Shown piece by piece: positions 7,684-24,915 of a stretch of DNA of 64,000 bases. The stretch is from Candidatus Latescibacterota bacterium (GTDB taxonomy: Bacteria > Latescibacterota > CBDEFO01): assembly GCA_965248755.1 (NCBI GenBank), contig OZ252149.1, positions 64,001 to 128,000 on the forward strand. Reading direction: 5' to 3'. A model generated the notes under the pieces. That model did no database searches, had not been told where the DNA came from, and saw only the letters and a program-made list of their open reading frames with translations. The position numbers were made by a program, and so were the translations under genes. Position 1 is the first letter of the stretch; each line of letters begins with the position of its first letter.

Positions 7684-8250
7684 ATGAACGTCCACGATGC
7701 TATTAAGACTCGCCGGACAATTTACAACTTTAAGCCCGACCCGGTACTGCTCAAGGATATAGAGCGCATCTTAAGCGGGTCTGTCTGGGCTCCCAACCAC
7801 AAATTGACCGAACCTTGGCGCTTTGCAGTTGTGACAGGTAAGACTAAAGAGAGGTTAGCCGAGATCAACCGCAGTCTCCAGATGGATTCGTTCAGCGATG
7901 TTGATCCGGAGGACAGGGCAAAACTCGCAGATAAAGCCTTCAAGAAAGTCATGTCCAAGCCGACGATCATCGTCGTCTCCTGCTGTCAGGAGGGCGACGA
8001 ACAGCGGAAAAGAGAGGATTACGCTGCCACCTGCTGTGCGATACAAAACATAATGCTTGGCGCCTGGGAGATGGAGATTGGAATGCAGTGGAGCACTGGC
8101 AAACTGACCCGAAGTGAGGAGACTTACAAGCTCTTGAGCACAGACTCAGCAAAAGAGTACATCGTCGGCTTCCTGTACACAGGCTATCCATCTGAAATTC
8201 ACAAACAAAAGCGTAAGCCTCTGTCTGATGTCACGTCCTGGTGGGACTGA
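7684..8250 (+). CDS. Nitroreductase family protein (YdjA-like)
   Basis: AIKTRRTI, WAPNHKLTEPWRF, AIQNIMLGAW...GMQWST, RKPL. Confidence 0.9.
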   Translation: MNVHDAIKTRRTIYNFKPDPVLLKDIERILSGSVWAPNHKLTEPWRFAVVTGKTKERLAEINRSLQMDSFSDVDPEDRAKLADKAFKKVMSKPTIIVVSCCQEGDEQRKREDYAATCCAIQNIMLGAWEMEIGMQWSTGKLTRSEETYKLLSTDSAKEYIVGFLYTGYPSEIHKQKRKPLSDVTSWWD

Positions 8251-8338
8251 AGCTTCACATATCTTGAACAACAGCGTGTATATAAGTGCATAAGAAAAGG
8301 ATGGAAAACGGGCTGAGCTTGCTCTCTCTCGACACAGA

Positions 8339-8821
8339 TCACACAAATGTCTTCAAAATTTCCTGTTGGATGCCTTGTAGTTCCGAGTAGGCATCATCGA
8401 TCTCGCTGATCTTCTCTTGAAGCTGCTTTATCAACCTCTGCTTTTCGAGTCCATTTCGGATGATGATCCAAAGGTCTTCGTTCTCCCAGGGTTTCTCGAT
8501 GTACTGAAAGAGTCCAACCTCGTTAATCGCCTTAATGGCGTTCTCTTTATCTGCGTACCCGGTAAGAATAATTCGAGGTACCTCGGGTTTGATTTCTCTT
8601 ACGCGGGCCAGAAAGGTGATCCCGTCCATTTCGGGCATTAGATAGTCCGAAATGACAAGGCCGACTTCGTTGTTCTTAAAGTACTCCAAGGCCTCTTTTG
8701 GCAAAGTGAAAGTGACGACATTATAGTTCGTCTCCAGATCCAAAAAAGAGCTGATACTTGTCAACACCATTTCTTCATCATCGACAATTATAACGGTTTC
8801 TTTTTCTTTTAAGTTTGTCAT
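8339..8821 (-). CDS. Response regulator (receiver domain plus C-terminal coiled coil, no DNA-binding domain)
   Basis: IVDDE, ISDYLMPEMDG (phospho-Asp), LTG, EKPW. Confidence 0.92.
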   Translation of the reverse strand: MTNLKEKETVIIVDDEEMVLTSISSFLDLETNYNVVTFTLPKEALEYFKNNEVGLVISDYLMPEMDGITFLARVREIKPEVPRIILTGYADKENAIKAINEVGLFQYIEKPWENEDLWIIIRNGLEKQRLIKQLQEKISEIDDAYSELQGIQQEILKTFV

Positions 8822-8893
8822 AGGTCTCTCCTATTTATGAATCATCATGTCATCAGATTGTTGTGGACTCCTTGCTATGTGATAAAACATCTC

Positions 8894-11734
8894 TCATCGA
8901 ACCGGCAGAAGTATTCGGAATACTGTGCCTACCCCGACTTGGCTTTCTACCTCTATCTCCCCCCTGTGGTCCTCAATGATCTGATACACAATCGAGAGAC
9001 CCAGCCCAGTCCCAATGCCGAACCCTTTCGTCGTGAATCCGGGATCGAAGATCCGTTCTAGATCCTCTTTGGGGATACCTATTCCGCTGTCCCGAATCTC
9101 TATCACAACGGCACCATCACGAAGGTGGGTCTTGATGAAAATCTCCCCTACCCCTTCGATGGCATGGCTTGCATTCACCAGGAGGTTCATAAAGACCTGG
9201 TTGAGCTGATTGGGGTAACATTTGATAGGCGGGATATCTTCGTAGTCTCTGTGGACTTCGATGCGATTTTTGATTTCGTGGTGAACGAGCGTCAGGGTAT
9301 TTTCAAGTCCCTCGTGGATGTCCACCTCATCCAATTCAGCCTCGTCGAGGCGGGCGAATTTCCGCAGGCTGATAACGATCGCCACGATGCGCTCGGCCGC
9401 TGTTCTGTTGACAGCATTAAGCTTCTCAATGCTTTCGAAGAGTCTGGTCAACTCCGGGTGCTCACGAACTTCTGCCGGAATTTTCGGATCGGACAAAATG
9501 CCCTTCACCTTTGCAAAAGAGCGGATAAAGATGTCGTTGTTGCTCTTAAGTGCCCCAAGGGGTGTGTTGATTTCGTGAGCTACTCCCGCCACCAGATTTC
9601 CCAATGTCGCCATCTTTTCAGTCTGAACCAATTGGGCCTGTTTTTCCCGCAGCTCCCGGGTGCGCTCTTGGACTTTTTGTTCCAATTCTTCGTATGCCCT
9701 CTGAAGCTCTTCCTCTGCCCGCTTGCGCTCCAGCGCATTCACGAATATTGCTCCCACTATCTTAAGTAGTGTGATAATGTCCTCTTCCCACTCTTTTTCT
9801 GCACGTAGCGAACAGAACCCCAGCATTCCAACAAGAGACTTACCATAGACCATAGGAACGGTGACGACCGACTTAACATCTTGCGACTGTAAACGTTCTT
9901 TTTCAGCGCTCGCCTCGTCAGGAAGATCTGCAACTCGAGGGATATAAATGTTCTCGAACCGGTCGAGTTTCTCCATAAGCCACGGGAAGTCACAACAGCG
10001 CATTCCCTTTTGGTTTTCTATTTCCGACTCGATTCCCTCGGTACACCACTCGTGTATATTGTCCAACCTAGTTTGGTCGTGGGACAACAGAGAGATATAA
10101 CTAAGATCGACACCCGCAAACTCTCCAATTTCTTGCATCGCCTGCTTTATCCCACTGTCGATCTCGTCTGATGCGAGGTTGATAAATCTTGTCGATATGG
10201 TGGTGATGAGATCTTCGAATTCAATTCGATGCTGTAGTGTTTCCTCTGCCTGCTTGCGCTCGGTAACATCACGAAAGCTCAACACCCTTCCAACACTTTT
10301 TCCTCCTATCTGCTGAGGCAGGGAATAGCGCTCGAAGATTCTCCCATCTTTAAATTCCAGCACATCGTAGCTCTCTGCATCCGGATGGGCGTACAATTCC
10401 ATTACTTTTTTGAGAAAGCCTTCAGGGTCTTTTAATTGATCGAGGACAAACTCCAGCGCTTGGTCGTCATCCTGCGACTCTACGATTGACTCGGGGATGT
10501 GCCATATCTCTACAAACTTCTGATTAAAGCTCGTCATCTTCCCCTCAGTATCCACTACGAGAATACCGTCGGCAGTTGCGTCGAACGTCGCACGGAGCAG
10601 CGAAAGAGATCTCTCAAGTTCCTCCTCGACCCGTTTGCGCTCGGTGATGTCGCGTCCATATGCATTGATGTAGTCAGTGTCTATCACTGGTGTGAGCAGA
10701 ACCGATAATATCTGGTCTCCGAGCTTGATCTCAATCTCTTTACTCAGTTTGGAGTCGTAAATATCCATAATTAGTTGCTTCCAGTCATCGGGCACAGACT
10801 GACCGGTTTCACAACCCCATTCATTCAATAAAGGCTGGCTGGCGGCGTTGGCATATAGAATGGTGCCATCTTTTGCGGTACGTAGCACGGGATTAGAGTT
10901 TTCAGAGGGGAATTTTGCCAAATCTTCAAGACTTCGGCTGTGTTCCTCTAACATCTTCTTCACCCGCTTGCGCTCTGTGATATCACGCACTGCTGCTGTA
11001 AAAAGAAGACGTTCACCGATCTTTGTTTCTGCAATGCGAATTTCTAAAGGAAACGTTGTCCCATCCTTTTTGAGCCCTTCAAGTTCCAAGCGTTGCCCCA
11101 ATACTTTTTGAACTCCAGTCTTCAAATATCGTTTCATACCAGCAGAATGGAGCCCCCGATATTTCTCTGGCATCAGGTTGTGCATTTTATTGCCGATAAG
11201 TTCTTCCTGCTGGTAGCCCCAGATGTTCTGAACCTCTTGGTTGACCATAACAATAGTGCTGTTTGAATCAATACTGATGATTCCCTCACCAACTGTATCC
11301 AGTACGGCACGAAACTGTGTTTGCGAATTAATTTGCTCCTCCGTCCGTTTGCGGTCGGTCACATCGCGGCAGATCCGTTGGATAACCCTCTTATCGCCAT
11401 AGGTGATCACACTGGCGCTCACATCGATAACTATCAGGGCTCCATCTTTCTTTTGGAAATGGAGGTCATTGTAGATGACACTTCCGGTATTTGCGACCTG
11501 TTTAAAGAGCCACTTTACCGTCTCCTTTTCCTCCGATGGATGGAGATCCCACACCTTCATCCCGACCAGTTCCTTTTGGACATAGCCTGTCATCTGTTCG
11601 GATTTCGGATTGGCCTCAAGGATTTCGCCATTTTCCGTGTCGATGGCAAATATTGCGTCGTTGGCCCGCTCGTACATCTTGCGATATTTCTCCTCGGACT
11701 CCAGCAGGCGCTTTATCTCTTCGTTGTCAGTCAT
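8894..11734 (-). CDS. Cytoplasmic multi-PAS + GAF sensor histidine kinase (NtrB-like)
   Basis: Four PAS/PAC segments ending in RDVT/RDIT, a GAF domain, H-box [12 protein letters not shown] box [12 protein letters not shown] boxes DSGIGI / GTGLGL. Start ATG 11734 after AAGGAG. Confidence 0.92.
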
Positions 11735-11768
11735 AGGCACTCTCTCCTTTGAAGCGGCAAGCCATATC

Positions 11769-12218
11769 TTATGTCTCACCACCATCGGTCGGTTCCACAC
11801 CAACCCGCCCAATTAAGCTGCGCAACCGCTTCGCAAGAGCCTTAAGGACTTCCTGTGTGATTTGCACGTGATCAGAGAGAAGATCGATAAAATCCTCCCG
11901 ATCGATTCGGAGAAGCTTCGTGTCTTCCAAAGTGGTCGCTGCAGCAACTCGGGGTTCGTCATCGAACAGAGACCAGGTTCCGAAGGCCTCCTTTGGCCCT
12001 GCAACGGTGATCTCCGCGCCGTCGCGATGGAGACGCACGCGCCCCTCTAAGACCAGATATAACGCATCCGACGGGTCCTGCTCTTTGTATATGGTCTCCC
12101 CTCTCGGGAGCGAAACCTCCTCCACAATAGCCGCAAGGTAGGCCAATTGTTCCGTGGAGACATCAGAAAAGACATCCACATTCTGTAGAAATATGAACTT
12201 TTCTATGACCGGAAGCAT
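11769..12218 (-). CDS. Stand-alone cyclic-nucleotide-binding (cNMP) domain protein
   Basis: IEKFIFLQNVDVFS, GETIYKEQD, LYLVLEGRV, FGTWSLFDDEPRVAAA; no HTH. Confidence 0.9.
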   Translation of the reverse strand: MLPVIEKFIFLQNVDVFSDVSTEQLAYLAAIVEEVSLPRGETIYKEQDPSDALYLVLEGRVRLHRDGAEITVAGPKEAFGTWSLFDDEPRVAAATTLEDTKLLRIDREDFIDLLSDHVQITQEVLKALAKRLRSLIGRVGVEPTDGGET

Positions 12219-12299
12219 AGCAGAAATTCCCTTACAATATCTAATCCATTCTGTTGCTCATTTACTTCGGGTCTACTGAAAGTACCACGAAAATTAATT

Positions 12300-14519
12300 T
12301 TAGATCTCTTCATCCAAATCCATCGGCAACATTACAGTAAATGTTGAACCCTCACCTACCCTGCTTTCTACTTTGATTTCCCCTTTGTGATCCTGAATAA
12401 TTTGGTAACAAATCGACAAACCTAAACCTGTCCCAACTCTCACACCCTTTGTCGTAAATCCAGGATCAAACACTTTTTCAAGATTTTCCTCAGGGATGCC
12501 AACTCCGTTATCTTGAATGGCCACGTGCACTTTGTGATCTTTTTGAAATGTGGTGATGGTGATCTCTCCCGTATCCTCTATGGCCTGCTTAGCATTGACC
12601 AAAATATTAAGAACAACCTGATTCAATCTGCGCGGATAGCAGACAACCGGAGGAATCTCGCCAAAAGTTTTTATCACTTTGATGCGGTTCTTTAAATCAT
12701 GATAGATTAAAGTCAAAGTGTCCTCTATCCCCTCGTGGATGTCCACTTCCTTCAACTCAGCTTCGTCCAATCTGGCAAAGCTCCGCAGGCTCTTGACAAT
12801 GTTCGTCACGCGATCAGAACCGGTTGTGATCACCTGGTTGGCGTCTGCAATGACCTTCAGCGCCGCGTTAAATTCACGGTTATCTTGACACTCTTTCGGG
12901 AATTGCGTTTCAAGGGTGGTCTTCAGTTTTTCCAAAGCGCGCATTGAGGTATCGTGCATGCTCTTTATGGCTCCGACGGGCGTATTGATCTCGTGGGCAA
13001 CGCCTGCTACCAGATCGCCCAATGCCGCCATCTTTTCAGACTGCACCAACTGGGATTGAGTTTCACGCAAATCTAGATTGGCATCTTCTAACTCACTTAA
13101 AACTTTTTGCAACTTGCGGGCCTCTTCAAGCTCTTGGGTTTTGCGGGCATTATCAGCCTCTACAATCTTTCGCGCCATTTCCTCTTCTTTGGCCAGGCGT
13201 TCCTGCTCTATCGTCTTGGCGGACAGCTCCTTAACCTGCATGAGCTGTGCCTCGAGGTCTTTGTTCGTTCGGGCAAAGCTGCGAGCTAAATACACGGACA
13301 TCGAAATAAGAAAGCAGAGAGTCCCATAAACATAGATTTCGTCAGATATAGCCTTTAAGACCTCGAGTTCTATCAGAATCTGGTAGGTGCAAGCAAAGAT
13401 AAAAGCCACGCCTCCAATGCCAATAATCCACGCACCGTCTTTTTTCTTTAGGACGGCCACGAAGATCACTCGGAGCATTTCCACAAAAGTTACCAGAGCA
13501 AACAGGTATATATAGAGAATAGGGGCATACCAGGACCAGCCCCCCAGAACTATTCCGCCTGCGAGCAAAACCCAGAACGGCCTGGGCAACTTGGGGTAAA
13601 AAAGTTTGTATAAAAATCGGACCCCAGAAACGCATGTAAGTAATACTGCCACCTTGAACAGCCAAAAATTAAATAAAAGCTGTCCTGAGTCTCTTAAAAA
13701 TATACCTTCGTAGCCTGTGAACGTCAAGGCCGTAATACTGGCCGTAAAGGCAGCGTAGTAGAGATTTTCTCTTGATCGAGGGTAGAACAGAAAGAGCAGA
13801 AGATGCAGCAATGTAAAGGCGAGGGGAACGCCCGAAAAAAACATCTGATAGGCTGCTAATCTCCTGACCCATAATCCACTGAGTTCTAAACTGTTCTCCA
13901 ATTCTCCTAAACCAATGGAAAAGCCCGCAGGATCGTAGACCGTCTTGTTGAAAGTTTCGGCACGGAAGTTTGAGTAGCGCACAGCTATAACGTGTTCGGC
14001 GCTCCGCGGGCGCTCTGACGGGGAGGTGGAAGGCCGCGACAGTGGTCTGCCGTCAAACGAAATGAGTTTCGGGGGGTCTAGCACCCCAAGAGAGTGATGG
14101 CCTTCTTCTTCCGCTTTTGAAGTTCCGACCTTACCGAAGGTATATATCAGCTTGCCGTCCAAGTAGATTTCAGCCGCACCTGTCTGATGATAAATCAGGG
14201 CTAATGGTCTATTCCACAGTGTAGAGTCAACTGCAACGTGCAGTCTGAACCAGCCAATTCCTTTCCAGCCGCCTTTCGGAAGTTTGTCCGACTTAAGCCG
14301 TGTGTCTACAGTTTCCCATAAACTGTCATCAAACTCCGGGTCGGCCCAGGCAGAATTATCGCCTGCGTGATATTTCCAGTTTCTAAAGAACTCGATTACG
14401 CGGTCCTCGTCCTTCAGGCTGTCCGCCGAAAGAACGATTCTCCCATCAACCTGAGCAGATGCCGGTGAAGTAGGCAGAAAGTACAAGCCCACAAGAACAA
14501 ACAACAGAATCTTTCTCAT
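12300..14519 (-). CDS. Membrane sensor histidine kinase with periplasmic galactose-binding-like domain and 7TM-DISM-like region
   Basis: Signal peptide; WKYHAGDNSAWADPEFDDSLW...GIGWFRL; about 7 TM helices; H-box [11 protein letters not shown]; HATPase G boxes. Confidence 0.9.
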   Translation of the reverse strand: MRKILLFVLVGLYFLPTSPASAQVDGRIVLSADSLKDEDRVIEFFRNWKYHAGDNSAWADPEFDDSLWETVDTRLKSDKLPKGGWKGIGWFRLHVAVDSTLWNRPLALIYHQTGAAEIYLDGKLIYTFGKVGTSKAEEEGHHSLGVLDPPKLISFDGRPLSRPSTSPSERPRSAEHVIAVRYSNFRAETFNKTVYDPAGFSIGLGELENSLELSGLWVRRLAAYQMFFSGVPLAFTLLHLLLFLFYPRSRENLYYAAFTASITALTFTGYEGIFLRDSGQLLFNFWLFKVAVLLTCVSGVRFLYKLFYPKLPRPFWVLLAGGIVLGGWSWYAPILYIYLFALVTFVEMLRVIFVAVLKKKDGAWIIGIGGVAFIFACTYQILIELEVLKAISDEIYVYGTLCFLISMSVYLARSFARTNKDLEAQLMQVKELSAKTIEQERLAKEEEMARKIVEADNARKTQELEEARKLQKVLSELEDANLDLRETQSQLVQSEKMAALGDLVAGVAHEINTPVGAIKSMHDTSMRALEKLKTTLETQFPKECQDNREFNAALKVIADANQVITTGSDRVTNIVKSLRSFARLDEAELKEVDIHEGIEDTLTLIYHDLKNRIKVIKTFGEIPPVVCYPRRLNQVVLNILVNAKQAIEDTGEITITTFQKDHKVHVAIQDNGVGIPEENLEKVFDPGFTTKGVRVGTGLGLSICYQIIQDHKGEIKVESRVGEGSTFTVMLPMDLDEEI

Positions 14520-14567
14520 AGTAGTTCTTCTATAAGTTTAAAATTCATCAATTCTTATACCTTGATG

Positions 14568-17348
14568 CTATCCATTGTTCAGCACCATATTTGCAGTTTC
14601 ACGAACCACAGGGTCCAGGTCGTTTTGAGCTTCCTCGGCCAATCTCATCAGTGTTGGGGAATCTGTCCCCACAACGTTATAAATCGCACAGGCCCTCAAC
14701 CAGGCATCGCGGCCACGAATCAGATGTACCAAGGCCTCTTCTTTGCTTTTTATCCGCTCTCTAAACAGCTCCTGTCCCTTTTGAATGGTGATTTCAAGAG
14801 AGACTTGGTCCAGGAAGGGAAAGAGATATTTCTTTATATCCTTGTTCAGCACAGTATCCAAGAACTCGATTGCGCTGGCATGCACCGCCTGTTTGCTGCT
14901 TACGATCCCCTGATAGGCGCTGTACATGTCTTTTGGCGGATAGCGCAGTCCTAATAGTCGGAAGATTCGCTCTAAACTCTGCTCCTGCTTTTCGATGAGA
15001 ACCTGCTTCAGGAGTTTGGAAGCGGTGCCATCTTGAGTCTCTCCCCGATTGCTTCCATCGGGGATCACATCCTGGATCTGTAGGATCTCGTAATAGGATT
15101 TTGTCTCTTGGATCAACGTGGCATCGACCTTACTTTGATCGAACCTCAACTGTTGGTATCTGGCGCGCAGTTTATTCAACGCCTTGATCAGGTGATATTT
15201 GAGAGTGGGATCTGCACTTTTCATGCCTTCTATAAGGATATCGACAGACTTTTGGGCTGGTATTTCGCTCAACACACGGGCGATGTTGCCCCGGAGTGAT
15301 ACCGATACATCCACGGTCTCGTCCCTGAGATAATCGTTCAAGGTGTCCAGAATTCGAGATCCAAATGCAGCCAAAGCCATGCGAGCATCGGCGCGGTATC
15401 GCTTATCGGAAAGTTTTTCTATCAACAACGCTACGAACTCCTGATCTCTTGTGCGGCCTGAACTTTCGATGGCCTGTCTGACAACTCTCGGAGATGGATC
15501 TTCCATCAGCTTGAAAAGATACCTTCGGAAGCTGGGATTGTCCAGACGCCCCAATGCTTTTGCCATCTGCTCCCGCCCCAATTCTCCCTCTTTTCCCTTA
15601 CGGTCCAGAAACGATTGGATTACCTTCTCATCGATCAGATGTCTTTCCTCGGATAAACCGTACTCTGCGATGCAGCCGATCGCCGCCGCTTGTATCTTGA
15701 GATCCGGGTCTTCCAGATAGCCCTTGATCCGGTCTATGTGGTTTCCTTTGGGATGCCGGCATAGGAAGAGCATAGTCTCAAGACGCACCTGTTGATCATC
15801 ATCTTTCAGAAGCTCCTCAATTTTGGACTCAAGGACCCCGTCTCCCTGGGTCCCGAGCACTCGAACAGCCTGCCTACGCACTTCGGAAGATCTATGTTTC
15901 AAAAGACGTTGTACCGGCTCTAATAGTCCCGCATCTTTCACGGATGTTAGGAGATCAAGTGCATAGACCACCTGCCGTTCATTGGTACTTGCAAGGGCAG
16001 CTATAAGGGCGTTGACCGTGGACGCCTCCGAGATGTCCATTCTGAGTTCATCCAGATCGATTTCGCGTCCCTCCAGAGCCTTCCGGAAGGCGTTCACATA
16101 TTCCTTGCGGACGAGTATACAAAAGAGAATCCACACAATCAAAAGGGCTATAACAAGGATACTGATTTGCCTTATGGAGAATCCAAAAACAACGGTAAAA
16201 AGCAGCAAAAGTGCGCCGGCAATACCACGTGACCACCGTTCCACAAACACATCAATGAAGATTTTGGTACGCTTCTTAATCTCCATAGGTACCGGGAGGG
16301 ACAACAGTTCAAAGCCTGTTTTGTTAATAGAATATCCTAAGCTTCGGTCAACCCCACGCAGAAAGATGCCCGCCCACAAGCCCGGCGCTATGAGCATCCC
16401 TACGGAACCGAATAACAGGCCGATGGGAAGAAACATAATGGTGCCCCCCACACCCAGAACTCTCAGGAACCGGTAGGTAAAGAGCGATTGAAACAGCAAA
16501 GCGACCAGACTCAGGCGGCCGTAAAATTTCCCCAAGAACGACGTAAGATCTTCTTTTGCGGGAAACTCCTCGGCAGAGATCGTTTTGAATTGGAAATCGA
16601 CAAAGGAAGCGGTCATCACCATCAAAGAGATGATTCCCACGAGAAGCATCAACTGCCGGGAGCGACGAATTGTCCTGAACATTTGGCCGAGCGTCTCCTT
16701 GCCTTGCTCTCTGATTTTGACAGGGTCGGGCTGTTCCTGGCTCTCCTTCTGTCCGATCGTCCAAATGATGTTTAAGAGAAAGATGCAGATTGTCAAGAAT
16801 CCTATGCATAAAAAGAGTAAATTCTCCGTTGACATTCCGAAGACGCGCACAACCAGGCTGGTTACCTCTCCTCCTGTGAAGGCCCCGAAGATCCCCCCCA
16901 GATTCAAAAGTACAAAGAGTCGTTTGGCCTGAGCCGGGTTAAACACTGTGTTGGCAAGGAGCCAGAACTGGGAGGTGATCGTTATGCCGTAAATGGCCAC
17001 CCAAATATAGAAGACGTAGTATACCCAGGAGTAGTCCAGTTGAATCAACCATCGCAGGATCAAGAGGCTGGCGATGAGAACAGCAGTAGTGGCATTCATC
17101 AGTTGTGTAAGCTTCAAAAAACGGGTCAATCTGACGTAGACCGTGATCATCGGAAGAGCGACCAAGGCAATGAGAATAAAGACGATAGGAAGCTGTTCCG
17201 GACCGATCCGCACCAAGAATAGACCGTCTCTTGCCGGTTTAAGCAAATAGTAGGCCACCAGCACCAAGTAGTAGTAGATAAACATCAAAAAGGTAAGTGT
17301 AAACTCTCCTTTTCGTATGTCCACTATTGAACCTAAAATGCGCTTCAT
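14568..17348 (-). CDS. NTT/TLC (Npt1/Npt2) nucleotide transporter fused to HEAT repeats
   Basis: About 12 TM N-terminal domain with YLLKPARD, SQFWLLAN, AKRLF, KIFIDVFVERW; helical repeats (SEVRRQA, QVRLET, RVVRQAI, VVRETA). Start set at ATG 17348 because the longer ORF runs through a REP. Confidence 0.88.
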   Translation of the reverse strand: MKRILGSIVDIRKGEFTLTFLMFIYYYLVLVAYYLLKPARDGLFLVRIGPEQLPIVFILIALVALPMITVYVRLTRFLKLTQLMNATTAVLIASLLILRWLIQLDYSWVYYVFYIWVAIYGITITSQFWLLANTVFNPAQAKRLFVLLNLGGIFGAFTGGEVTSLVVRVFGMSTENLLFLCIGFLTICIFLLNIIWTIGQKESQEQPDPVKIREQGKETLGQMFRTIRRSRQLMLLVGIISLMVMTASFVDFQFKTISAEEFPAKEDLTSFLGKFYGRLSLVALLFQSLFTYRFLRVLGVGGTIMFLPIGLLFGSVGMLIAPGLWAGIFLRGVDRSLGYSINKTGFELLSLPVPMEIKKRTKIFIDVFVERWSRGIAGALLLLFTVVFGFSIRQISILVIALLIVWILFCILVRKEYVNAFRKALEGREIDLDELRMDISEASTVNALIAALASTNERQVVYALDLLTSVKDAGLLEPVQRLLKHRSSEVRRQAVRVLGTQGDGVLESKIEELLKDDDQQVRLETMLFLCRHPKGNHIDRIKGYLEDPDLKIQAAAIGCIAEYGLSEERHLIDEKVIQSFLDRKGKEGELGREQMAKALGRLDNPSFRRYLFKLMEDPSPRVVRQAIESSGRTRDQEFVALLIEKLSDKRYRADARMALAAFGSRILDTLNDYLRDETVDVSVSLRGNIARVLSEIPAQKSVDILIEGMKSADPTLKYHLIKALNKLRARYQQLRFDQSKVDATLIQETKSYYEILQIQDVIPDGSNRGETQDGTASKLLKQVLIEKQEQSLERIFRLLGLRYPPKDMYSAYQGIVSSKQAVHASAIEFLDTVLNKDIKKYLFPFLDQVSLEITIQKGQELFRERIKSKEEALVHLIRGRDAWLRACAIYNVVGTDSPTLMRLAEEAQNDLDPVVRETANMVLNNG
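15042..15064. repeat. 23-bp palindrome copy inside the NTT-HEAT CDS
   Basis: tccccgattgcttccatcgggga; read as IPDGSNRGE on the minus strand. Confidence 0.7.
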
Positions 17349-17374
17349 CTTGTGCCCTTTGGCCGTAGACAGCA

Positions 17375-17443
17375 GTAGGGGCGAACCCACGTGTTCGCCC
17401 GATTTATCCGTATTTTCAGGGCAGAACATAGGTCTGCCCCTGC
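17375..17443. repeat. GTAG-type REP doublet (REPIN-like)
   Basis: gtaggggcgaacccacgtgttcgccc...gggcagaacataggtctgcccctgc; close copy at 36980-37062. Confidence 0.8.
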
Positions 17444-17467
17444 AGTGTTCGCCCTCGGATAAAACCT

Positions 17468-18808
17468 TTATGCAGATGGAGATGGAACAGGGGACGCTTC
17501 GGTCATCTTCTGGAACGATCGTCCGGCAACCCGCGCAGCCAGTATCCAGACAACGACAATAGCAGCGGTGGCAAGCGACAGCCACCGGATAGTGCTGAAC
17601 TCAGAGAATACCAGTGTGATCACCAAGAGGAGACCCACAGACAGTGCCTTTGCAAAACGCTGGACGAACATATCGATAAACGCCTTGGCCCCATATTTCT
17701 CCTCTCTCGTGGTCGGCACGTAGAGGACCTCCTTGGCCAACTGGTTCATCGAATAGCTGAAGCCACTGTCACAGGTATTCAAAGCGCTGCCAAGGAGCAG
17801 CACCGGTGCGATCATAAAACCGGTCGAACCGAGCAAGACGGTCACCGGCAGGAACAGTAGGGCCGTACCCACACCAAAACGGGTCATGACTAAGCTGGTG
17901 AGGAGAAGCTGCACAAACAGGGCCACACCGTTGGAAACGACGTATACTGTGGCAAGATGGACGGTATAAGCCTCCTTAACCAGGTAATGTGTGACAGTCT
18001 CCTTGAACTGGAAATCCATAATGGTCGAGACCATCTCGTAGAGACCAACAATCGCCATGATGGATAGTAGGTAACGGGATCGGAACACTAAGCGTGCGCC
18101 CTCCAAAGCCGGATTGCCTGCCGCTTGAGTCTCCTTCTTCTGTGATACCTCAGGTGGCGGGCGGCGAGATACTATCCTGCCGACGATCATTGCGATAAGG
18201 ATGATGATCATGGCGATCCCCAGGCAGATCCAGAGCCACTCAGAGGAACTCAGATCTTTCACTTTTGCCCTGAGCACTAAAGACCCAAAGGCGCCCCCCG
18301 TCACACCTCCCAGGCCGATCAGGCCGTAGAGCCGTTTCGCCGTATCGGGATCTACACTGTCGTTGAGAAAGGCAAAAAAGGTAACCACCATCAGCGTGCT
18401 GAATAGGTCTCCAAATAGGTAGAAGGACCAGACTGTTACGTCGCCCGGGGTATCCAGCACGGTACTGTAGAGGACATAGCAGGCGATGAAGAAGCCGGAG
18501 AAGATGTAGGTGAGTTGTTGGCGCCGAAAGTATCGGGCCAGAAGAGTGAAGACCGTTACAGCCACAAATGCCACGACCATGTTCAGCACCTTGGCAATCA
18601 GTTCCGCCTGGGCCGGACGCAGGTGCCAGTAGAATATATCGAAACCGATTTCATCATAATACCAGAGGAAAAGCCCACTTTTGATCGGCTTGAGGATCCA
18701 GAAGCTGGCGATGACCAGGAAGAAGTAGAGGAACATCAACAGTGCCAGCGGAACTTCCTCACGCCGGATGTTCATAATCTGTCTGAAAGGATTCGCCTGA
18801 GATGCCAT
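17468..18808 (-). CDS. NTT/TLC (ATP/ADP translocase family) nucleotide transporter, stand-alone
   Basis: IRREEVPLALLMFLYFFLVI, WILKPIKS, FFAFLND, AKRLYG, KEVLYVP...KYGAKAFIDMFVQRFAK; about 12 TM. Confidence 0.88.
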   Translation of the reverse strand: MASQANPFRQIMNIRREEVPLALLMFLYFFLVIASFWILKPIKSGLFLWYYDEIGFDIFYWHLRPAQAELIAKVLNMVVAFVAVTVFTLLARYFRRQQLTYIFSGFFIACYVLYSTVLDTPGDVTVWSFYLFGDLFSTLMVVTFFAFLNDSVDPDTAKRLYGLIGLGGVTGGAFGSLVLRAKVKDLSSSEWLWICLGIAMIIILIAMIVGRIVSRRPPPEVSQKKETQAAGNPALEGARLVFRSRYLLSIMAIVGLYEMVSTIMDFQFKETVTHYLVKEAYTVHLATVYVVSNGVALFVQLLLTSLVMTRFGVGTALLFLPVTVLLGSTGFMIAPVLLLGSALNTCDSGFSYSMNQLAKEVLYVPTTREEKYGAKAFIDMFVQRFAKALSVGLLLVITLVFSEFSTIRWLSLATAAIVVVWILAARVAGRSFQKMTEASPVPSPSA

Positions 18809-18832
18809 ATACGCTCCGATCTTATAGGGGAG

Positions 18833-20560
18833 TTATTCCTCGCGCTCGATCCGCACAATCTGATAGTGTCCCGATTCCCACACGTAAAAATAGACCCTTG
18901 TATATTTGGATGTCTGACCGTCACGTAGGGTCCGGATCTCGTACCCGTAAAACTGCCTCGCAGTCAGATTTTCCTCCAGAGGGATAAGAGTCTCCCCGCG
19001 CAGTATCTTTTCTGGGCCGATCGCCTTCCCCCGGTCGTTCAACAGCCTATACCGATAGGTCGTCTCCGATAAAGAGGCGAGTTTCCCACGCACGGCTAAG
19101 TCTTCAAACTTCATCCCTTTGCTGTCTATGGAAAACCGATCGAGGGGATTGATCTTGCCAAACCAGTAGCGTCCTATTATGTCCCGGCGTTCGATCAAAA
19201 GGCGGGTCAGTTCCACCTCCGCTTTCGGGTTGGATAAGCGTCCGGTCTTTACCATCGCCGCGATCTCCTCATCCGAGAACGACATAACGATTTTGGCACC
19301 CCAGTAGCCGTCCCGGTTGGTGCGCCGCTGAAACGCCGGGTTAGGATAGGTGGGCGACCACCTCCCCGGATGGAAGACCTCACTTTCGAAATACCCGATG
19401 GAGGGATATTTCATCGGCAGGGGATCCTCCCACGCCTTCTTGTAGAAGCCCAGTGCAAAGAGCGACAGCCCGATATTCCGAGGGTCGAAGACATATTCGT
19501 TCCCGTACATTGGAGGATGGGGCATCCAGTAGTTGCTGCCAATTGTAGACCCCATGTCGATGAGGTAGTGCTTGATGTAGCGTCGTCCCTTTTCGTCGGT
19601 CACGTACATATCCAGCGTGTTGGCGGCGCGCCGGTCGCTGTCGTTTATCCAGGAGCCGATGACCCGCAGGCCGCGCAGTTCCCGCCGATGCTGATGTTTC
19701 ACCCGGTCGTTCGGGTCGTCCCTGCGCCGGCCGTGAAAATTGAAGACGCCGACAGGAACAATTCCTTCTAAAAACTCGCTTGCCAGGCACCGCAAGCGGC
19801 CGTCGGGTTGAACGGGGATGTGATTGAGAATGCCGCGAAGATCGGCTTCGGTCATCGGACGTTTAGTGCCTCCAGGTGCCGGTACCTTCGCCTTCGGGCC
19901 GATCTTCAGAATGGACGGATCAAAAAAGACGACGGAGTTTTTGGGGACGCTGTACCCAGAAGCGTACAGAATCTTGGTCGAAATCGTCTCCGCTGCGGAG
20001 GCCATCTCCTCGTTCCTCTCGGCGTCGAACTTGAGAACGAATATAGTTCCGGATACATCCTTGATCCTAAAGCCAGCTGATCCCCCTTCGAACTTACCCT
20101 TGATGATCTCCCAGGGACCGCTGGTATCGGGCTGGGCAACGCCCGGACCCCGCATCAGCTCTTCAATCGTCATCGGGCGGTGGAAATGCCGGTTGGTGTA
20201 CCAGGAGGAGTCTGACGCCTCATCCAGGGCGTTGACGTTATCGGCCTGCTTGACGGGGACTATGTTAAGCAGATTTCCGACCCGCCGTGCAGTCCAACCG
20301 AGGTCGAGGAGCTTGCCGACTTGATAGAAAAGTGTCATATCTATGATGTCCCAGATCTGGTTTTCCTTGACCTCCTTCGGCTTTGGTATGGTCTTGTTGT
20401 CCGCGTCGAACCACTTGATAGGCTTCGTCTTTAGGTTTAGCCCGGAGCCGCAACCCGTCATTATTAGAAGACAGTAGACAGTGGTCAGTAGACGGAGGCA
20501 CCATCTCCCCTCCCTGTCTACTGTTTGCTGTTTGCTGTTTACTCGCTTTTCTGTATCCAT
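18833..20560 (-). CDS. Hypothetical lipoprotein with atypical kinase-like (PI3/PI4K/HipA/CotH-type) motifs
   Basis: Lipobox MTGC; Gly loop GKFEGGSAGF; FVLKFD Lys; alphaC Glu (AAETIS); GYSVP; catalytic loop NDSDRRAAN; IDMG. Confidence 0.75.
   Translation of the reverse strand: MDTEKRVNSKQQTVDREGRWCLRLLTTVYCLLIMTGCGSGLNLKTKPIKWFDADNKTIPKPKEVKENQIWDIIDMTLFYQVGKLLDLGWTARRVGNLLNIVPVKQADNVNALDEASDSSWYTNRHFHRPMTIEELMRGPGVAQPDTSGPWEIIKGKFEGGSAGFRIKDVSGTIFVLKFDAERNEEMASAAETISTKILYASGYSVPKNSVVFFDPSILKIGPKAKVPAPGGTKRPMTEADLRGILNHIPVQPDGRLRCLASEFLEGIVPVGVFNFHGRRRDDPNDRVKHQHRRELRGLRVIGSWINDSDRRAANTLDMYVTDEKGRRYIKHYLIDMGSTIGSNYWMPHPPMYGNEYVFDPRNIGLSLFALGFYKKAWEDPLPMKYPSIGYFESEVFHPGRWSPTYPNPAFQRRTNRDGYWGAKIVMSFSDEEIAAMVKTGRLSNPKAEVELTRLLIERRDIIGRYWFGKINPLDRFSIDSKGMKFEDLAVRGKLASLSETTYRYRLLNDRGKAIGPEKILRGETLIPLEENLTARQFYGYEIRTLRDGQTSKYTRVYFYVWESGHYQIVRIEREE
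20469..20543. repeat. Inverted arrays of ACAGTAG/ACAGCAA-type heptamers inside the 5' end of the kinase-like gene
   Basis: agacagt agacagt ggtcagt agac ... ctgtcta ctgtttg ctgtttg ctgttta; the same heptamers occur near 23589, 32637, 58270 and 61177. Confidence 0.65.
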
Positions 20561-21555
20561 TTGCCAGGTCCCACAGGTTTGAGCGAAAAGTCCAGGCTAT
20601 CCCTTTCTATGGTCACAAGCACGTAGTGGTCGCCTCGGTAGGCTACAGCCCGATACTTAGGCGTCTCCTTTGAAGGTGTATGCGTAGGAGCGCCGCCGCC
20701 GCCGGTGACCACAAAATCGACCCCACGATAGATATAGTGTTCGTAGAAGTGGCTGTGTCCCGTAAAGACTACAGTCCGGGCGTAGGGGTCCTTCTCCTTT
20801 CGCCGCGCAAGGTGATCAGCTAAAACCTTTCGCAGACGCTGCTCCTGGGGTCTGGGTACATGTCCTTTGTTCCATCTGAACAGAAACCGCCGGGCCAGCC
20901 CCCCCGAGCCGCTGGAAAATACCGTGTGATGGAGCACTACAAACAGGAAGCGACTTTCGGATGCCTCGTCCAGGCGCTCTCGGAACCACCGGGCATGGAC
21001 ATTTGTCGAATCTTCCGCTCCGATCCAGGGTGGCATTGTCGAATCGATAAAGATGAAGTAGGTGTCTTTCATATGGAAGGCGTAGCTTGAAGCCTGTCCG
21101 ATCGTCTCACCAAAGATATTGACGTAGTCGTCGCTGTCCCCTCCTTTGTGGTCATGGTTGCCCCGGACCGGATAGAAAAACCGTGGCTTCAAGAGAGGTG
21201 TCGTATCCTCTTTGAAGTACGTCCAGAGCAATTTGTCCACGCCGCGCTTCACCAGATCTCCTGTGTGGATCACGAAATCGGGGGACTCTTTTGCGATGGT
21301 CTCTACCACCGCCCGGCGTCTGCGGCGGCGGGCGGAATCATAGCGTAAATCCTTTGGATTTTTGCTGATTCGATTGTCTCCATACACTACAAAGACAACA
21401 GTATCCCTCCGAGCAATAGCCAGGCTGATCGGAGGCGGCACGGACGCCCGTAAACCTTTTTGCGTTAGTCTCGGTGCGGCGCATCCGCCCGCGATCAGGA
21501 GCAGAACAAGCATCCCAAGCCAGATCGACACGGAGTGGGCGTACCACCTCGCCAT
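20539..21555 (-). CDS. Calcineurin-like metallophosphoesterase, predicted lipoprotein
   Basis: Lipobox IAGGC; motifs YGDNR, HTGDLV, RGNHD, LHH, GHSHFYEH, VTGGGG. Start set at ATG 21555. Confidence 0.88.
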   Translation of the reverse strand: MARWYAHSVSIWLGMLVLLLIAGGCAAPRLTQKGLRASVPPPISLAIARRDTVVFVVYGDNRISKNPKDLRYDSARRRRRRAVVETIAKESPDFVIHTGDLVKRGVDKLLWTYFKEDTTPLLKPRFFYPVRGNHDHKGGDSDDYVNIFGETIGQASSYAFHMKDTYFIFIDSTMPPWIGAEDSTNVHARWFRERLDEASESRFLFVVLHHTVFSSGSGGLARRFLFRWNKGHVPRPQEQRLRKVLADHLARRKEKDPYARTVVFTGHSHFYEHYIYRGVDFVVTGGGGAPTHTPSKETPKYRAVAYRGDHYVLVTIERDSLDFSLKPVGPGKWIQKSE

Positions 21556-21644
21556 CCGGCCTTTCCCCCGAAAAGTCCTTCGTCCACTTCGTGGCTTGCT
21601 GCCTCCCCAGCAAAGCGGCCATACTGCCTTTCGGGGGACTCTGA

Positions 21645-23093
21645 TCAAAATTTCTGCTCCAGTGTAAACCCCACAAGCGCCTCCTCGGCAGCGCTGTGGC
21701 CAACCCGCAGCTTGCCCAGGAAACCGGTTTCGGACCCGAAAATGATCCCGCCTCCATAGGAAGTCCGGAATCGATCGAAATAAATCTGATCGTAGTCGTC
21801 GAAGACCTGTCCCTCATCCCAAAATAGGAAGGCGTTCCATCTCCCTCTCAAGGAGTCCCAGATCGGATACCGGTATTCAGCGCTCAAAAGCAGTGATCCT
21901 TCACCCCTTAAAAAGCCGCGGTGATAGCCCCTCAAGTGATAGCTTCCAAAGATCGCCAGATCCGGGTACGGGATAATACCGTCTCCGATCCGATGAGCCT
22001 TCTCCAGACGTGCCCGCAACGCCAGGATCCGGTTGCGGAAGAAGAGAGTAAAAAACCGCTGGACTTCAGCTGTCACCTGCACAAAGCGCACATCATCAGA
22101 TCCGATCACATAGTCCGCCTCGGCCTGCAATAGTCCCCCACGTTCGGGGTAGAAGATGTCCCGAAAGTTATGATAGAAGCCGTCGGTATAGATGATGACT
22201 CGGCCTGGGAAACGGTAGATTAAGGGATGGGAGATCTCCCGCTTAGGCCCTTGGTAGTCCCTGTCGTCGTATGAGATTTGTACCCCGAACGAGTAGAGTG
22301 CGATAACATCCGCCAGCCCGATCAGCAACCGGGCCTGAGACGTGGATCCTGGGTCGGTCAGTGTCCCTTCTGGTTCGAACTGCTGTCGGAAATCTCGCCG
22401 TCCGTATCCGAACCTGACCTCTATATAGACATTTTTCTGATAGGGCTCCAATTCCCTTGCATGGGGACGCCACCCGAGCGTCGTCAACGCGTCGAGCCTC
22501 TCGATCTGAAACCGGCGCGTCGAGTGGTCCCGCACAGCGCCGTTGATAGAGGCACTTCTGTGGCGGGTACGGAGAAAGGTCGCCTCGCTCCTCGAGTAGA
22601 GGCGACTTCCCGCCAGGTTCGGATCGAAGTAGAGGACATCACCTCTCTGCCCGCGTCCCCCAGAATAGACGAAGAGGCCCTCAAACCGTTTTCCCCTCCC
22701 GGCAATGTTCGAGTGGAAGACTCTGACGCCGCCCCCGGTCCCAGTCTCTCCTCCTAACTGAACATGGGGAAAGATGCCGAACGTCCGGTCTGCGTTCATA
22801 AACAGGTTCATAGTCCGAGTCGGCAGATGAGTATGCTCCGCCCAGATCGTGAACTTCTTCAGGGGATGTAAGATCAGATTCATCAATGACTTGGGAATGG
22901 TTTGTGGAACGGAGAGGAAGTGCCCTGCAACGCTTCCCTTCGACTCGTAGACATCGTTTGTATCGATCTCCGCGGTCTGCTGTGGGTGGGCGGGCGATGC
23001 CCCGACCAAAGTCAGACCAATACAAAGTGGTAAGACGTGCACTCCGTATGCGACCACTGCGTGTAGAAGTGCTGAAAATAAGCTTCGTTCCAT
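21645..23093 (-). CDS. Omp85/BamA-TamA family outer-membrane beta-barrel without recognisable POTRA domains
   Basis: Signal peptide; amphipathic strands; loop-6 motif LRGYHRGFLRGEG; SAEYRYPIW, FWDEGQV, SYGGGI; C-terminal Phe (FTLEQKF). Confidence 0.85.
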   Translation of the reverse strand: MERSLFSALLHAVVAYGVHVLPLCIGLTLVGASPAHPQQTAEIDTNDVYESKGSVAGHFLSVPQTIPKSLMNLILHPLKKFTIWAEHTHLPTRTMNLFMNADRTFGIFPHVQLGGETGTGGGVRVFHSNIAGRGKRFEGLFVYSGGRGQRGDVLYFDPNLAGSRLYSRSEATFLRTRHRSASINGAVRDHSTRRFQIERLDALTTLGWRPHARELEPYQKNVYIEVRFGYGRRDFRQQFEPEGTLTDPGSTSQARLLIGLADVIALYSFGVQISYDDRDYQGPKREISHPLIYRFPGRVIIYTDGFYHNFRDIFYPERGGLLQAEADYVIGSDDVRFVQVTAEVQRFFTLFFRNRILALRARLEKAHRIGDGIIPYPDLAIFGSYHLRGYHRGFLRGEGSLLLSAEYRYPIWDSLRGRWNAFLFWDEGQVFDDYDQIYFDRFRTSYGGGIIFGSETGFLGKLRVGHSAAEEALVGFTLEQKF

Positions 23094-23322
23094 AACGGGC
23101 AGGCCTTTCCAGGCGATAGGCTAACTTTCAACTATCCTTGATTACGACCACCTCAAGAGTATCTGGCATTGTTCCCTTTCCAATATTATTTGACAAAGGA
23201 GATCGAAACATTCGATCAATATTTTCGTAATATAGGTTCCCATCTTGGTCAACGCAAGCGGAAAATGCACTCATACTAAGCGCCCCTAAATAGACAAAAC
23301 AGAAAAGCAAGGGTTTTTCTAA

Positions 23323-23471
23323 CCCGAATAATTCGTGAAATCTGAGAAGTCTGCATAAATACTGGACTTTCCAGTTATCGCACGAAAACAAAGTTTCTTA
23401 GCCTAAATTGTATAATCGATTGTCGTACATAGAATTATAGAAATTTTCAGCAAGTTTATGAATTAATCAGG
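23323..23471. mobile_element. MITE (149 bp) with CC-starting terminal inverted repeats and CTAA target duplication (IS1380-like ends)
   Basis: CTAA|CCCGAATAATTC ... GAATTAATCAGG|CTAA; same ends as 39936-40185 in the opposite orientation. Confidence 0.7.
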
Positions 23472-24027
23472 CTAAATGTATTGTAGAAGATTTTCAGGGA
23501 TCAGATGATCATGGCCTGATTTGAAGATGCACACTGTAAAAAGGGAGTAAATTGTTCTTGACTACTCTAATATTTCAATATATACTAAACAGGCAGACAG
23601 TAGACGGACAGTCCTCTCTCGCATCCCCGATGCTGTCTGCTCATACGGAAGATAAGGAAGGTTCAAGTGGACACTGTAGATCGCGAAGGTGCATGAGGAG
23701 TCTAAAGCGGTTCTATATCGGGCTCGCGAGAACCTGAAGACGGCAGTAGCCTAAGCAAGTAGATGATCGTCCCCCAAAGGACGGCGTGGGCACTGCGGAC
23801 ATTGCTGCCGCCGCTTCTTGCGGGGCCACGAAATGCCAGCAAACCACAAATTGGTGACATGTGTGGCGTGCCACTTTGCTTGAGAAATATCAAGCCAGGA
23901 AGTAGTCGGAGAAATCTTTAAGGGAAAGTGCTTCTCTGTCGTTTTTATGGCCAGACTGTTTCCGCGCAAACATAAGCCAAGAAAAGGGCCTAAAACTTTA
24001 GAGAGACAGTAGGAGGAAGCTAAGATC

Positions 24028-24915
24028 ATGAACGTAAAAGTTGGTAATGCACCGGATTCCTGGGGCGTCTGGTTTCCCGACGATCCCAAGCAAATCCCAT
24101 GGCAGCGATTTCTGGATGAAGTTGCTGAAGCTGACTACGAATGGATCGAACTGGGTCCCTACGGCTACCTTCCCACGGATCTATCCGTACTGCGAGCCGA
24201 ACTGGACAAGCGCGGCTTGAAAGCGACCGCGGGGTTTGCTATGCGCGATCTTGAGGATATGGCAGTGTGGCCTGCGCTGAAAGAGGAGGTGCTTAAGATA
24301 TGCGAATTGGTGGCAGCCTTGGGGGGTAAATTTCTGGTGTTGATTGATGACACCTATTCCAACCTCTCTACGGGTGAGCCGAAGGTGCCGACCCGCCTGG
24401 ACGACAGCGCATGGAAACGGTTGATCGACACCACGCACAAAGCGGCCGACATTGCGCGTGATAAGTTTGACCTCACCCTCGTCTTCCATCCCCATGCCGA
24501 GACGCACGTCGAGTACGAAGACCAGACCGAGGCATTCATAGAACAGACCGACCCTGACCGCGTTTCGCTGTGCCTGGATACCGGACACTATGCCTATCGC
24601 GGTGGCGACCCTGTGAGCTTCATGCGCCGGCACCACGACCGGGTTCCCTACCTGCATCTTAAGAGCGTCGATCGGGAAATACAGAAGAAAGTCGAAGCCG
24701 AACACATTCCCTTTGCTGTAGCTGTGGGGATGGATATGTTCTGCGAGCCATCCGAGGGGGCAGTCGATTTCCTCGCCTTCCGCGATGTCCTGTTCGACGT
24801 TGACTACAACGGCATTGCTATTGTCGAACAGGATATGTACCCTGCCCCGTTCGATAAACCTTTGCCTATTGCCAAGCGTACCCGCAGTTACCTGCGCCAG
24901 ATCGGGATCGGATGA
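24028..24915 (+). CDS. iolE: 2-keto-myo-inositol dehydratase-like TIM-barrel protein
   Basis: NAPDSWGVWF, ELGPYGYLP, FHPH, LDTGH, HLKS, VEQD; in a cluster with iolD. Confidence 0.75.
   Translation: MNVKVGNAPDSWGVWFPDDPKQIPWQRFLDEVAEADYEWIELGPYGYLPTDLSVLRAELDKRGLKATAGFAMRDLEDMAVWPALKEEVLKICELVAALGGKFLVLIDDTYSNLSTGEPKVPTRLDDSAWKRLIDTTHKAADIARDKFDLTLVFHPHAETHVEYEDQTEAFIEQTDPDRVSLCLDTGHYAYRGGDPVSFMRRHHDRVPYLHLKSVDREIQKKVEAEHIPFAVAVGMDMFCEPSEGAVDFLAFRDVLFDVDYNGIAIVEQDMYPAPFDKPLPIAKRTRSYLRQIGIG

Follow-up and report, generated by a model that had tools for sequence, protein, structure and literature searches.

Enzymes of kinase fold are known to work outside the cytosol. The Golgi casein kinase Fam20C has a signal peptide and acts where ATP must be carried in; in the endoplasmic reticulum (ER) the ATP/ADP exchanger is presumably SLC35B1/AXER. 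The bacterial periplasm is, to our knowledge, generally taken as free of ATP, and envelope machines are explained accordingly. Here we describe a row of minus-strand genes in Candidatus Latescibacterota bacterium (assembly GCA_965248755.1), located in the 64,000-nucleotide stretch of contig OZ252149.1 from position 64,001 to 128,000 of the forward strand (the window). The row brings together an Omp85 outer-membrane barrel, a metallophosphoesterase (MPE), a 575-residue exported protein with a predicted protein-kinase-like fold (K575) and two carriers of the TLC/NTT nucleotide-transporter family, one of them fused to HEAT repeats (NTT-HEAT). The arrangement recurs in 78 loci, which is far beyond chance, and structure prediction supports docking of K575 on the barrel.

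Several described bacterial systems share a part of this composition. In PlpD, a patatin-domain enzyme is held by an Omp85 barrel on the periplasmic face of the outer membrane, according to the available part of Hanson et al. (2024, PMC11116518). Barrels of the 'noNterm' class lack POTRA domains and often have a flanking lipoprotein gene (Heinz & Lithgow 2014, PMC4104836; for Leptospira, PMC11358297). In the available portions of these two papers the flanking lipoproteins are DUF1566 and Big-domain proteins, and the word 'kinase' is absent from the Leptospira paper; the partner here, K575, has a predicted kinase fold. NTT-HEAT carriers form an uncharacterised clade in free-living bacteria, with an adjacent gene for a cyclic-nucleotide-binding protein (cNBD) (Major, Embley & Williams 2017, PMC5381601); the accessible text of that paper does not connect them with any exported kinase, Omp85 barrel or phosphatase. 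As an earlier note on this DNA, made from its letters alone, had supposed, literature searches turned up no described system of such composition, and in the partial texts found NTT-HEAT, noNterm Omp85 and PlpD are treated separately.

Five co-oriented genes form the core of the row. All lie on the minus strand at the coordinates that the earlier note had given, and Pfam places all but K575 in a family:

21645..23093, minus strand: Omp85 barrel, POTRA-less and of 'noNterm' type, 482 aa (Pfam PF01103, AlphaFold2, Foldseek)
20539..21555, minus strand: MPE with a lipobox-like motif, likely start ATG 21555 (Pfam Metallophos; open reading frame (ORF) as called 20539-21648)
18833..20560, minus strand: K575, predicted exported protein-kinase-like enzyme of no named family, 575 aa, lipobox-like motif IMTGC
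17468..18808, minus strand: stand-alone TLC/NTT-family carrier, 446 aa (Pfam TLC)
14568..17348, minus strand: NTT-HEAT fusion, TLC carrier with a cytoplasmic HEAT-repeat domain, 926 aa (Pfam TLC and HEAT_2)

The 3' end of the MPE gene shares 22 nt with K575 (20539-20560), an overlap already noticed in the earlier note. Read from the translation and the DNA, ATG 21555 is the most probable start codon of the MPE, with the product MARWY...LIAGGC. The most likely start of NTT-HEAT is ATG 17348, not that of the 1005-aa ORF (17585), because homologues have 894-965 aa and the upstream part of the ORF crosses a REP-like repeat; with this start NTT and NTT-HEAT do not overlap. By their record titles the 78 related loci come from Latescibacterota, Gemmatimonadota, Calditrichota, KSB1, Planctomycetota and Bacteroidota (Rhodothermales, Balneolaceae).

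K575 belongs to a large family that has no name. It matched no Pfam or NCBIfam model; against PDB sequences the single sequence found only unrelated chains (E 0.48 and 0.77), and the profile a methyltransferase (E 1.8). Among 8000 candidates scored, 5147 proteins matched at E<=0.001, and a Pfam domain was found in none of the 120 relatives listed. K575 also matched 2773 representative clusters at 50% identity. The AlphaFold2 model of K575, built on a 73-sequence alignment (predicted local distance difference test, pLDDT, 94.7; predicted template-modelling score 0.92), consists of an N-terminal docking region (~47-130), a kinase-fold region (~135-470) and a C-terminal FN3-like sandwich (470-563). 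VIA, a structure search independent of Foldseek, placed CtkA first (Z 13.9, root-mean-square deviation 3.7, 224 residues aligned), followed by Hydra Fam20 (12.8), DrFam20C1 (12.5), CotH (12.4) and PI4KIIα (12.1), with actin-fragmin kinase (11.1), HipA (10.6) and MavQ (10.0) lower down. These kinase matches, which support a bilobal kinase fold, span model residues ~117-474; the unrelated rows below them were FN3 domains confined to residues 467-568 (Z ~9). In Foldseek the top ten matches were all kinases, led by Fam20C (E 4e-6), with Hydra Fam20, Helicobacter pylori CtkA and PI4KIIα also among the best.

A candidate catalytic quartet was assigned from the order of secondary structure elements in the model and not by superposition. 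K177 ends β3, D309 and N314 form a D-x4-N catalytic loop, and D335 heads an IDMG motif that reads IDFG in the family consensus. Among the 256 family members of at least 450 aa, K177, D309 and D335 are each kept in 250 and N314 in 249, and all four are kept jointly in 241. A block DDPND..H..RRELRGLR (D282, D285, H289, R293, R296) is present in 255-256 of the same 256 members. A hydrophobic signal-type N-terminus was found in 72 of 73 members, in agreement with the extracytoplasmic location that had been claimed, and a simple lipobox pattern in 45 of 73; in the translations of the row, IMTGC (K575) and IAGGC (MPE) follow a hydrophobic stretch as lipobox-like motifs. By sequence criteria and predicted fold, K575 is an exported enzyme of protein-kinase-like fold with a putatively live active site, and the earlier description of the 575-residue protein as kinase-like is upheld by the predicted fold and the intact quartet.

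The two groups of kinases closest in fold each differ from K575 in clear respects. Like Fam20C, K575 would be a kinase-fold enzyme outside the cytosol, and the Fam20 proteins are among its best fold matches. Unlike Fam20C, it does not match the Fam20C model PF06702 in Pfam (an Atlas feature score of 0.79 links it to a cluster with PF06702 in 11% of members), it is by motif a lipoprotein, it is predicted to dock on an outer-membrane barrel, and the carrier of its module is of TLC/MFS type. With the HipA, CtkA and type II PI4K proteins, the PI3/4-kinase-like branch, K575 shares the D-x-x-x-x-N loop followed by D-[FM]-G and the β3 lysine. Weak matches to HipA_C and HipA_2 (PF07804, PF20613) occur in 10 and 9 of 73 members (best 7.4e-5), while K575 itself gave no match to the HipA models at E<=1. 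It matches none of the Pfam models of this branch and differs from it in the ~90-residue N-terminal docking region, the invariant DDPND..H..RRELRGLR block, the C-terminal FN3-like domain, the export signal and the pairing with Omp85.

Some relatives of K575 depart from this pattern. The 1151-aa Acidobacteriota relative P0276 has lost K177, D309, N314 and D335, and its extra C-terminal half has no Pfam match. Two paralogues from the class of Balneolales (L088 4802-6496 and L089 4955-6592) have lost K177, D309 and N314 and retain D282, D285, H289, R293 and R296. In two Latescibacterota loci (L044 9917-13255 and L047 9851-13189) K575 is broken in two, with ~420 aa in the N-terminal part and ~167 aa in the C-terminal part, and ~1.5 kb separates the parts; something may have inserted into the gene. 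A search for longer relatives returned only four proteins of ~1150 aa, three of which were scanned with Pfam and had no domain; no fusion to Omp85, NTT or MPE was seen, which is weak evidence that fused forms are absent.

A recurrent partner of K575 is the Omp85 gene, which lies directly upstream in 63 of the 69 loci with enough upstream DNA when scored by script, and in 65 of 69 once L013 and L072 had been read: in L013 the MPE gene stands between Omp85 and K575, just as it does in the window, whereas the contig of L072 ends within the locus. The loci without an upstream Omp85 gene are L020, L021, L023 and L025. The barrel domain (PF01103, 48.8 bits, cut-off 24) covers residues 129-455, and Pfam found no POTRA domain in the protein at E<=0.01. 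In its AlphaFold2 model (pLDDT 83.9) the N-terminus is helical (H55-60, H62-87, H90-98) and not β-α-α-β-β, and 16-17 strands (DSSP) follow the helices at 55-98. This is the barrel without recognisable POTRA domains that the earlier note had described, and because it has no POTRA family and a helical N-terminus it fits the noNterm class of Heinz and Lithgow. Foldseek matched the model to BamA (4k3c, E 9e-13) and TamA (4c00, E 7e-12); against the BamA equivalog TIGR03303 the protein scored 27 bits, under the cut-off of 297. Ahead of the helices stand a signal peptide and a tail, disordered in the monomer model, with the motif D-[NT]-x-x-[PV]-Y-E-[ST]-[RK]. In the alignment of homologues Y49 is kept in 43 of 49 and S/T51 in 47 of 49; residues 44-49 of this motif are encoded at 22947-22964. 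The tail motif may be a docking peptide or a phospho-acceptor.

Modelling of the barrel with the kinase had been suggested as a check, and a complex was predicted. With both alignments K575 and Omp85 scored 0.67 (runs 0.67, 0.69 and 0.66), the best control 0.00; of 157 solved complexes 116 attained this mark, as did 2 of 215 mismatched pairs. The runs had at least 68% of contacts in common, with partner pLDDT of at least 84. On the barrel the predicted interface comprises residues 47-52, which overlap the tail motif, together with 288-295, 351-355, 407-415, 421 and 423; on K575 it includes residues 278-291. Strand counting that begins at the C-terminal strand and takes 369-398 as loop 6 would place residues 350-355 and 415-416 at periplasmic turns, while the membrane side of residues 277-318 is ambiguous by this counting. 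By strand parity the contacts 351-355, 407-415, 421 and 423 would all lie at such turns. The prediction supports binding of K575 to the barrel. The earlier note had left it that the barrel 'exports or anchors' its enzymes; anchoring is now favoured over export because the touching barrel residues read as periplasmic.

Export in the manner of two-partner secretion, with the barrel moving K575 (and the MPE) to the surface or the medium to phosphorylate external targets with released ATP, is improbable in our judgement. It has some precedent, as Omp85/TpsB relatives export partners encoded in the same operon (Leptospira noNterm paper, PMC11358297, available part) and patatin-Omp85 and MPE-Omp85 fusions are neighbours in some loci. 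For CtkA, the nearest relative in fold, the title of the PDB entry reads 'proinflammatory kinase', and the protein is presumably secreted. Against export, TpsB transporters recruit cargo through POTRA domains, which this barrel lacks. K575 has no TPS domain in Pfam, most members of its family appear by lipobox pattern to be lipoproteins, and the predicted contacts fall on turns read as periplasmic. Secretion had long been assumed for the patatin domain of PlpD as well, yet this domain was shown to stay in the periplasm (Hanson et al. 2024, PMC11116518, as far as its available part goes).

The K575 module is like PlpD-type proteins in that patatin-Omp85 and MPE-Omp85 fusions adjoin the Omp85-K575 pair in L022, L024, L044, L047 and L078, and unlike PlpD in that the enzyme has a gene of its own, next to that of a POTRA-less barrel, and is a putative lipoprotein of predicted kinase fold. 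These five loci belong to one Latescibacterota genus. There (L022 11607-20273 and the others) Omp85-K575 is followed by the patatin-Omp85 protein (770 aa), an MPE-like Omp85 fusion (905 aa), a DUF4956 protein, a phytase-like protein and a sulfatase, with no NTT nearby.

The TLC carriers are the second recurrent partner. The stand-alone NTT matched PF03219 (TLC) with 77.6 bits and the NTT-HEAT fusion with 48.1 bits (cut-off 21). In the fusion TLC spans residues 171-453, and HEAT_2 scores 99.3 bits in four stretches. The best PDB sequence matches of the stand-alone NTT were the plastid ADP,ATP carrier AtNTT1 (9j3j, E 1e-12) and 9j3n (E 1.2e-7). Among the 59 loci with at least 5 kb of downstream DNA, the stand-alone NTT is present in 39, NTT-HEAT in 32 and at least one TLC gene in 45. 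The gene orders vary: NTT lies downstream or upstream, NTT-HEAT upstream, or the order is inverted. In the remaining 14 of the 59 loci no TLC gene is nearby; all seven genomes tested from among those whose K575 locus had none carry TLC elsewhere. A single K575 gene and only two TLC genes were found in the window's own genome (4.54 Mb in one contig, 98% complete), and this row holds all three.

Surveys of whole genomes extend this linkage. Among 140 genomes of the phylum, K575 was found in 35, PF03219 in 54 and both in 31; the four K575-positive genomes without TLC (G072, G079, G131, G133) hold K575 fragments only. At E<=1e-30 the stand-alone NTT found matches in 21 genomes, every one of them K575-positive, and in 0 of the 105 K575-negative genomes. 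In 17 of the 21 the match is a close orthologue of the stand-alone NTT (E<=1e-93), and in the other four it arises through NTT-HEAT carrier domains. A second lineage, sampled by 121 genomes from the class to which a Balneolales isolate belongs, had strong K575 matches in 11, TLC in 12 and both in nine, two of the nine being known positives beforehand. All nine strong-TLC genomes there carry K575, and the three TLC-only genomes have weak matches (~1e-4). The two K575-positive, TLC-negative genomes of this lineage (G173, G259) hold only catalytically dead paralogues with no Omp85 neighbour, a pattern in two genomes that fits a need of live kinases for carriers. The 'Gemmatimonas' metagenome-assembled locus L001 was taken as genome G026, with TLC at the same contig coordinates, and is not counted as a replicate from a third lineage. 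The same-genus genome G006 has neither K575 nor TLC. The conserved co-localisation of the 575-residue protein with Omp85 and NTT or NTT-HEAT, on which the earlier proposal had hung, was seen across the related loci and in the genomes of two lineages.

The linkage bears on whether there is one system here or two units that travel together, with NTT-HEAT, cNBD, receiver and histidine kinases as a regulated transport or signalling unit and Omp85-K575 as a pair with a structural or biogenesis role at the outer membrane. In such a pair the kinase fold would serve to bind, as it might in an accessory lipoprotein like those of BAM. NTT-HEAT(-cNBD) is indeed widespread without K575, the surroundings of 14 of the 59 loci hold no TLC gene, some K575 relatives lack catalytic residues, and the most invariant residues of K575 lie outside the quartet, with 278-291 in the predicted barrel interface. 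However, the linkage survives varied gene orders and holds across phyla, strong matches to the stand-alone NTT are restricted to K575 genomes, K575 is fragmented where TLC is absent, and the quartet is kept in 241 of 256 members. We regard two independent units as rather unlikely.

The same data can be set against uptake. In such a scheme the TLC carriers would import external nucleotides or another phosphorylated solute that the barrel, K575 and the MPE bind, trim or convert beforehand in the periplasm, and K575 would be a binding or processing protein and not an ATP-fuelled kinase. The characterised NTTs of parasites and plastids do import (Major et al. 2017, PMC5381601, available part). Genes of exported phosphoesterase type also accompany TLC: the MPE here, a 5'-nucleotidase-type gene, and sulfatase or phosphodiesterase genes in K575-negative genomes. 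On the other side, the predicted kinase fold and the quartet point to a nucleotide-using enzyme, which would be without a donor in an ATP-free periplasm; the paralogues found without TLC are the catalytically dead ones; the MPE is optional; the genome makes its own purines and ATP; and we know of no Omp85 barrels that serve as solute channels. Uptake, and with it a non-kinase role for K575, is unlikely. Energy parasitism as the reason for the NTTs was rejected because the 4.5-Mb genome makes its own purines and ATP, encoding PurH and the gamma subunit of an F-type ATP synthase.

The MPE matched Pfam Metallophos (PF00149) with 42.6 bits (cut-off 21.5); its NCBIfam matches, to cyclic-nucleotide phosphodiesterases, were weak and far under cut-off, and no PDB sequence matched it at E<=0.1.

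We propose that the row encodes an envelope phosphotransfer module comprising Omp85-docked K575, TLC carriers that supply it with nucleotide and, optionally, the MPE. K575, a putative lipoprotein, would be docked on the periplasmic face of the POTRA-less barrel and would there, just beneath the outer membrane, carry out nucleoside triphosphate-dependent phosphotransfer. The phosphate could go to the barrel's own PYE[S/T] tail, to a different envelope protein or to a lipid of the outer membrane. The two inner-membrane TLC/NTT carriers would deliver the nucleotide, ATP out and ADP in. Control of the HEAT-fused carrier would come from the cytoplasmic side, by way of the HEAT domain, the cyclic-nucleotide-binding protein and the receiver and histidine kinases. 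The MPE, as an accessory, would undo the modification or remove nucleotide products. The analysis shows gene content, conservation, export signals, a kinase fold in the model, retained catalytic residues and a predicted complex; with catalysis, nucleotide, direction of transport and acceptor all inferred, we hold the proposal tentatively, as having somewhat less than an even chance.

Several points weigh against it. (i) No kinase model of Pfam matches K575 itself, its likeness to kinases in fold is moderate (Foldseek TM 0.19-0.29 on the query, VIA Z 10-14), and its most invariant residues, D282, D285, H289, R293 and R296, are not those of the canonical quartet. (ii) The likeness of the carriers to TLC proteins is distant, as on TIGR00769 they score 63 (NTT) and 37 bits (NTT-HEAT) against a cut-off of 387, and their substrate could be another nucleotide or a cofactor. 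(iii) TLC matches occur in 23 of the 105 K575-negative genomes of the phylum, and NTT-HEAT is not dedicated to K575, since in K575-negative genomes it adjoins exported-type sulfatase/phosphodiesterase genes. (iv) Genomes G063, G064, G065 and G071 (95-99% complete) have full-length K575 and Omp85 with only a distant TLC relative, a 427-aa ORF that matches 57 model residues with 32 bits and lies beside a 5'-nucleotidase-type gene. (v) The dead-paralogue test consists of two genomes, and related genomes are not independent samples. (vi) An MPE-like ORF is present in only 25 of the 78 related loci, so the phosphatase does not hold the place of a core partner that the earlier note had given it. (vii) Porins would leak periplasmic ATP.

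In G064 (L083 60-2583) the short TLC match is the sole Pfam match of the 427-aa ORF, which comes directly after a gene for a 5'-nucleotidase C-terminal domain; similar weak matches in ORFs of ~423-442 aa seemingly extend across that genus. In K575-negative genomes NTT-HEAT-cNBD triple fusions of 1063 and 1120 aa are found (L090 7873-13534 and L091 4691-9597), each followed by a Sulfatase/Phosphodiest-type gene, and L090 also has a SpoIIE/PP2C phosphatase gene.

The co-oriented row extends past 14568 down to 8339 with four further minus-strand genes, beyond which lies a plus-strand nitroreductase gene (7684-8250). These genes, and the region upstream of the row, are:

23094..24027, minus strand: upstream intergenic region, AT-rich, ~930 nt, with a promoter-like site and a 161-nt repeated element
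12300..14519, minus strand: 7TMR-DISM histidine kinase, between the NTT-HEAT and cNBD genes (Pfam HATPase_c, 7TMR-DISM_7TM, HisKA)
11769..12218, minus strand: small cNMP-binding protein (cNBD), the usual partner of NTT-HEAT (Pfam cNMP_binding, 77 bits)
8894..11812, minus strand: PAS/GAF histidine kinase (Pfam)
8339..8821, minus strand: stand-alone receiver (response regulator), final gene of the co-oriented row (Pfam Response_reg, 93.7 bits)

The NTT-HEAT carrier resembles the clade of Major et al. in its C-terminal HEAT fusion and in having the cNBD gene in the same row, two genes downstream, and differs in that a histidine-kinase gene separates the two. In many related loci a cNBD gene (143-150 aa) comes directly after NTT-HEAT, 19 loci again have histidine kinases or receivers downstream, and the same type of receiver, of 157-168 aa, follows the cNBD gene in L003, L007, L010, L016, L019, L050 and L075.

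Upstream of Omp85 a promoter-like site, TTCATA-17-TATAAT, is found at 23462-23434; the promoter and terminator scans were no richer than shuffles (15 against 14.5 and 18 against 16.3), and Rfam gave no match at E<=0.1 in 8000-24500. A 161-nt non-coding element upstream of Omp85 (23318-23478) overlaps this best promoter-like site and is without an Rfam match. It is 97% identical to a site in G006, where the coding flanks are 70-74% identical. A second copy (99%) lies in the window's own genome at G000:C1:217307-217465, and the last 30 nt recur at 13 more sites. Synteny with G006 defined no insertion, since the flanks, 70-74% identical, are on different contigs. Stretches of 65-85 nt at 17374-17445, ~20466-20550, ~21561-21637 and ~23782-23863 match dozens of G006 sites at 77-92% identity and look like REP (repetitive extragenic palindromic) or MITE (miniature inverted-repeat transposable element) repeats. 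The one in the gap between NTT and NTT-HEAT has hairpin arms, and another runs into K575, across codons that specify the N-terminal portion of its signal peptide. A repeat search within the region itself found one weak 26-nt family only.

A wider reading is that the periplasm is deliberately energised in free-living diderms of many phyla, by regulated ATP export, a kinase bolted to a barrel and a reversible phospho-switch at the outer membrane. We consider this doubtful, although it is worth stating, as the module of K575, carriers and barrel makes the assumption of an ATP-free periplasm directly testable. If ATP export is wrong, the predicted K575-Omp85 pair would still be an undescribed outer-membrane complex. 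If the reading is right, the module would be a bacterial counterpart of ATP import into the ER and Golgi together with Fam20C, and it would give a first function to the NTT-HEAT clade, to the noNterm class of Omp85 barrels and to the K575 family of thousands of proteins.

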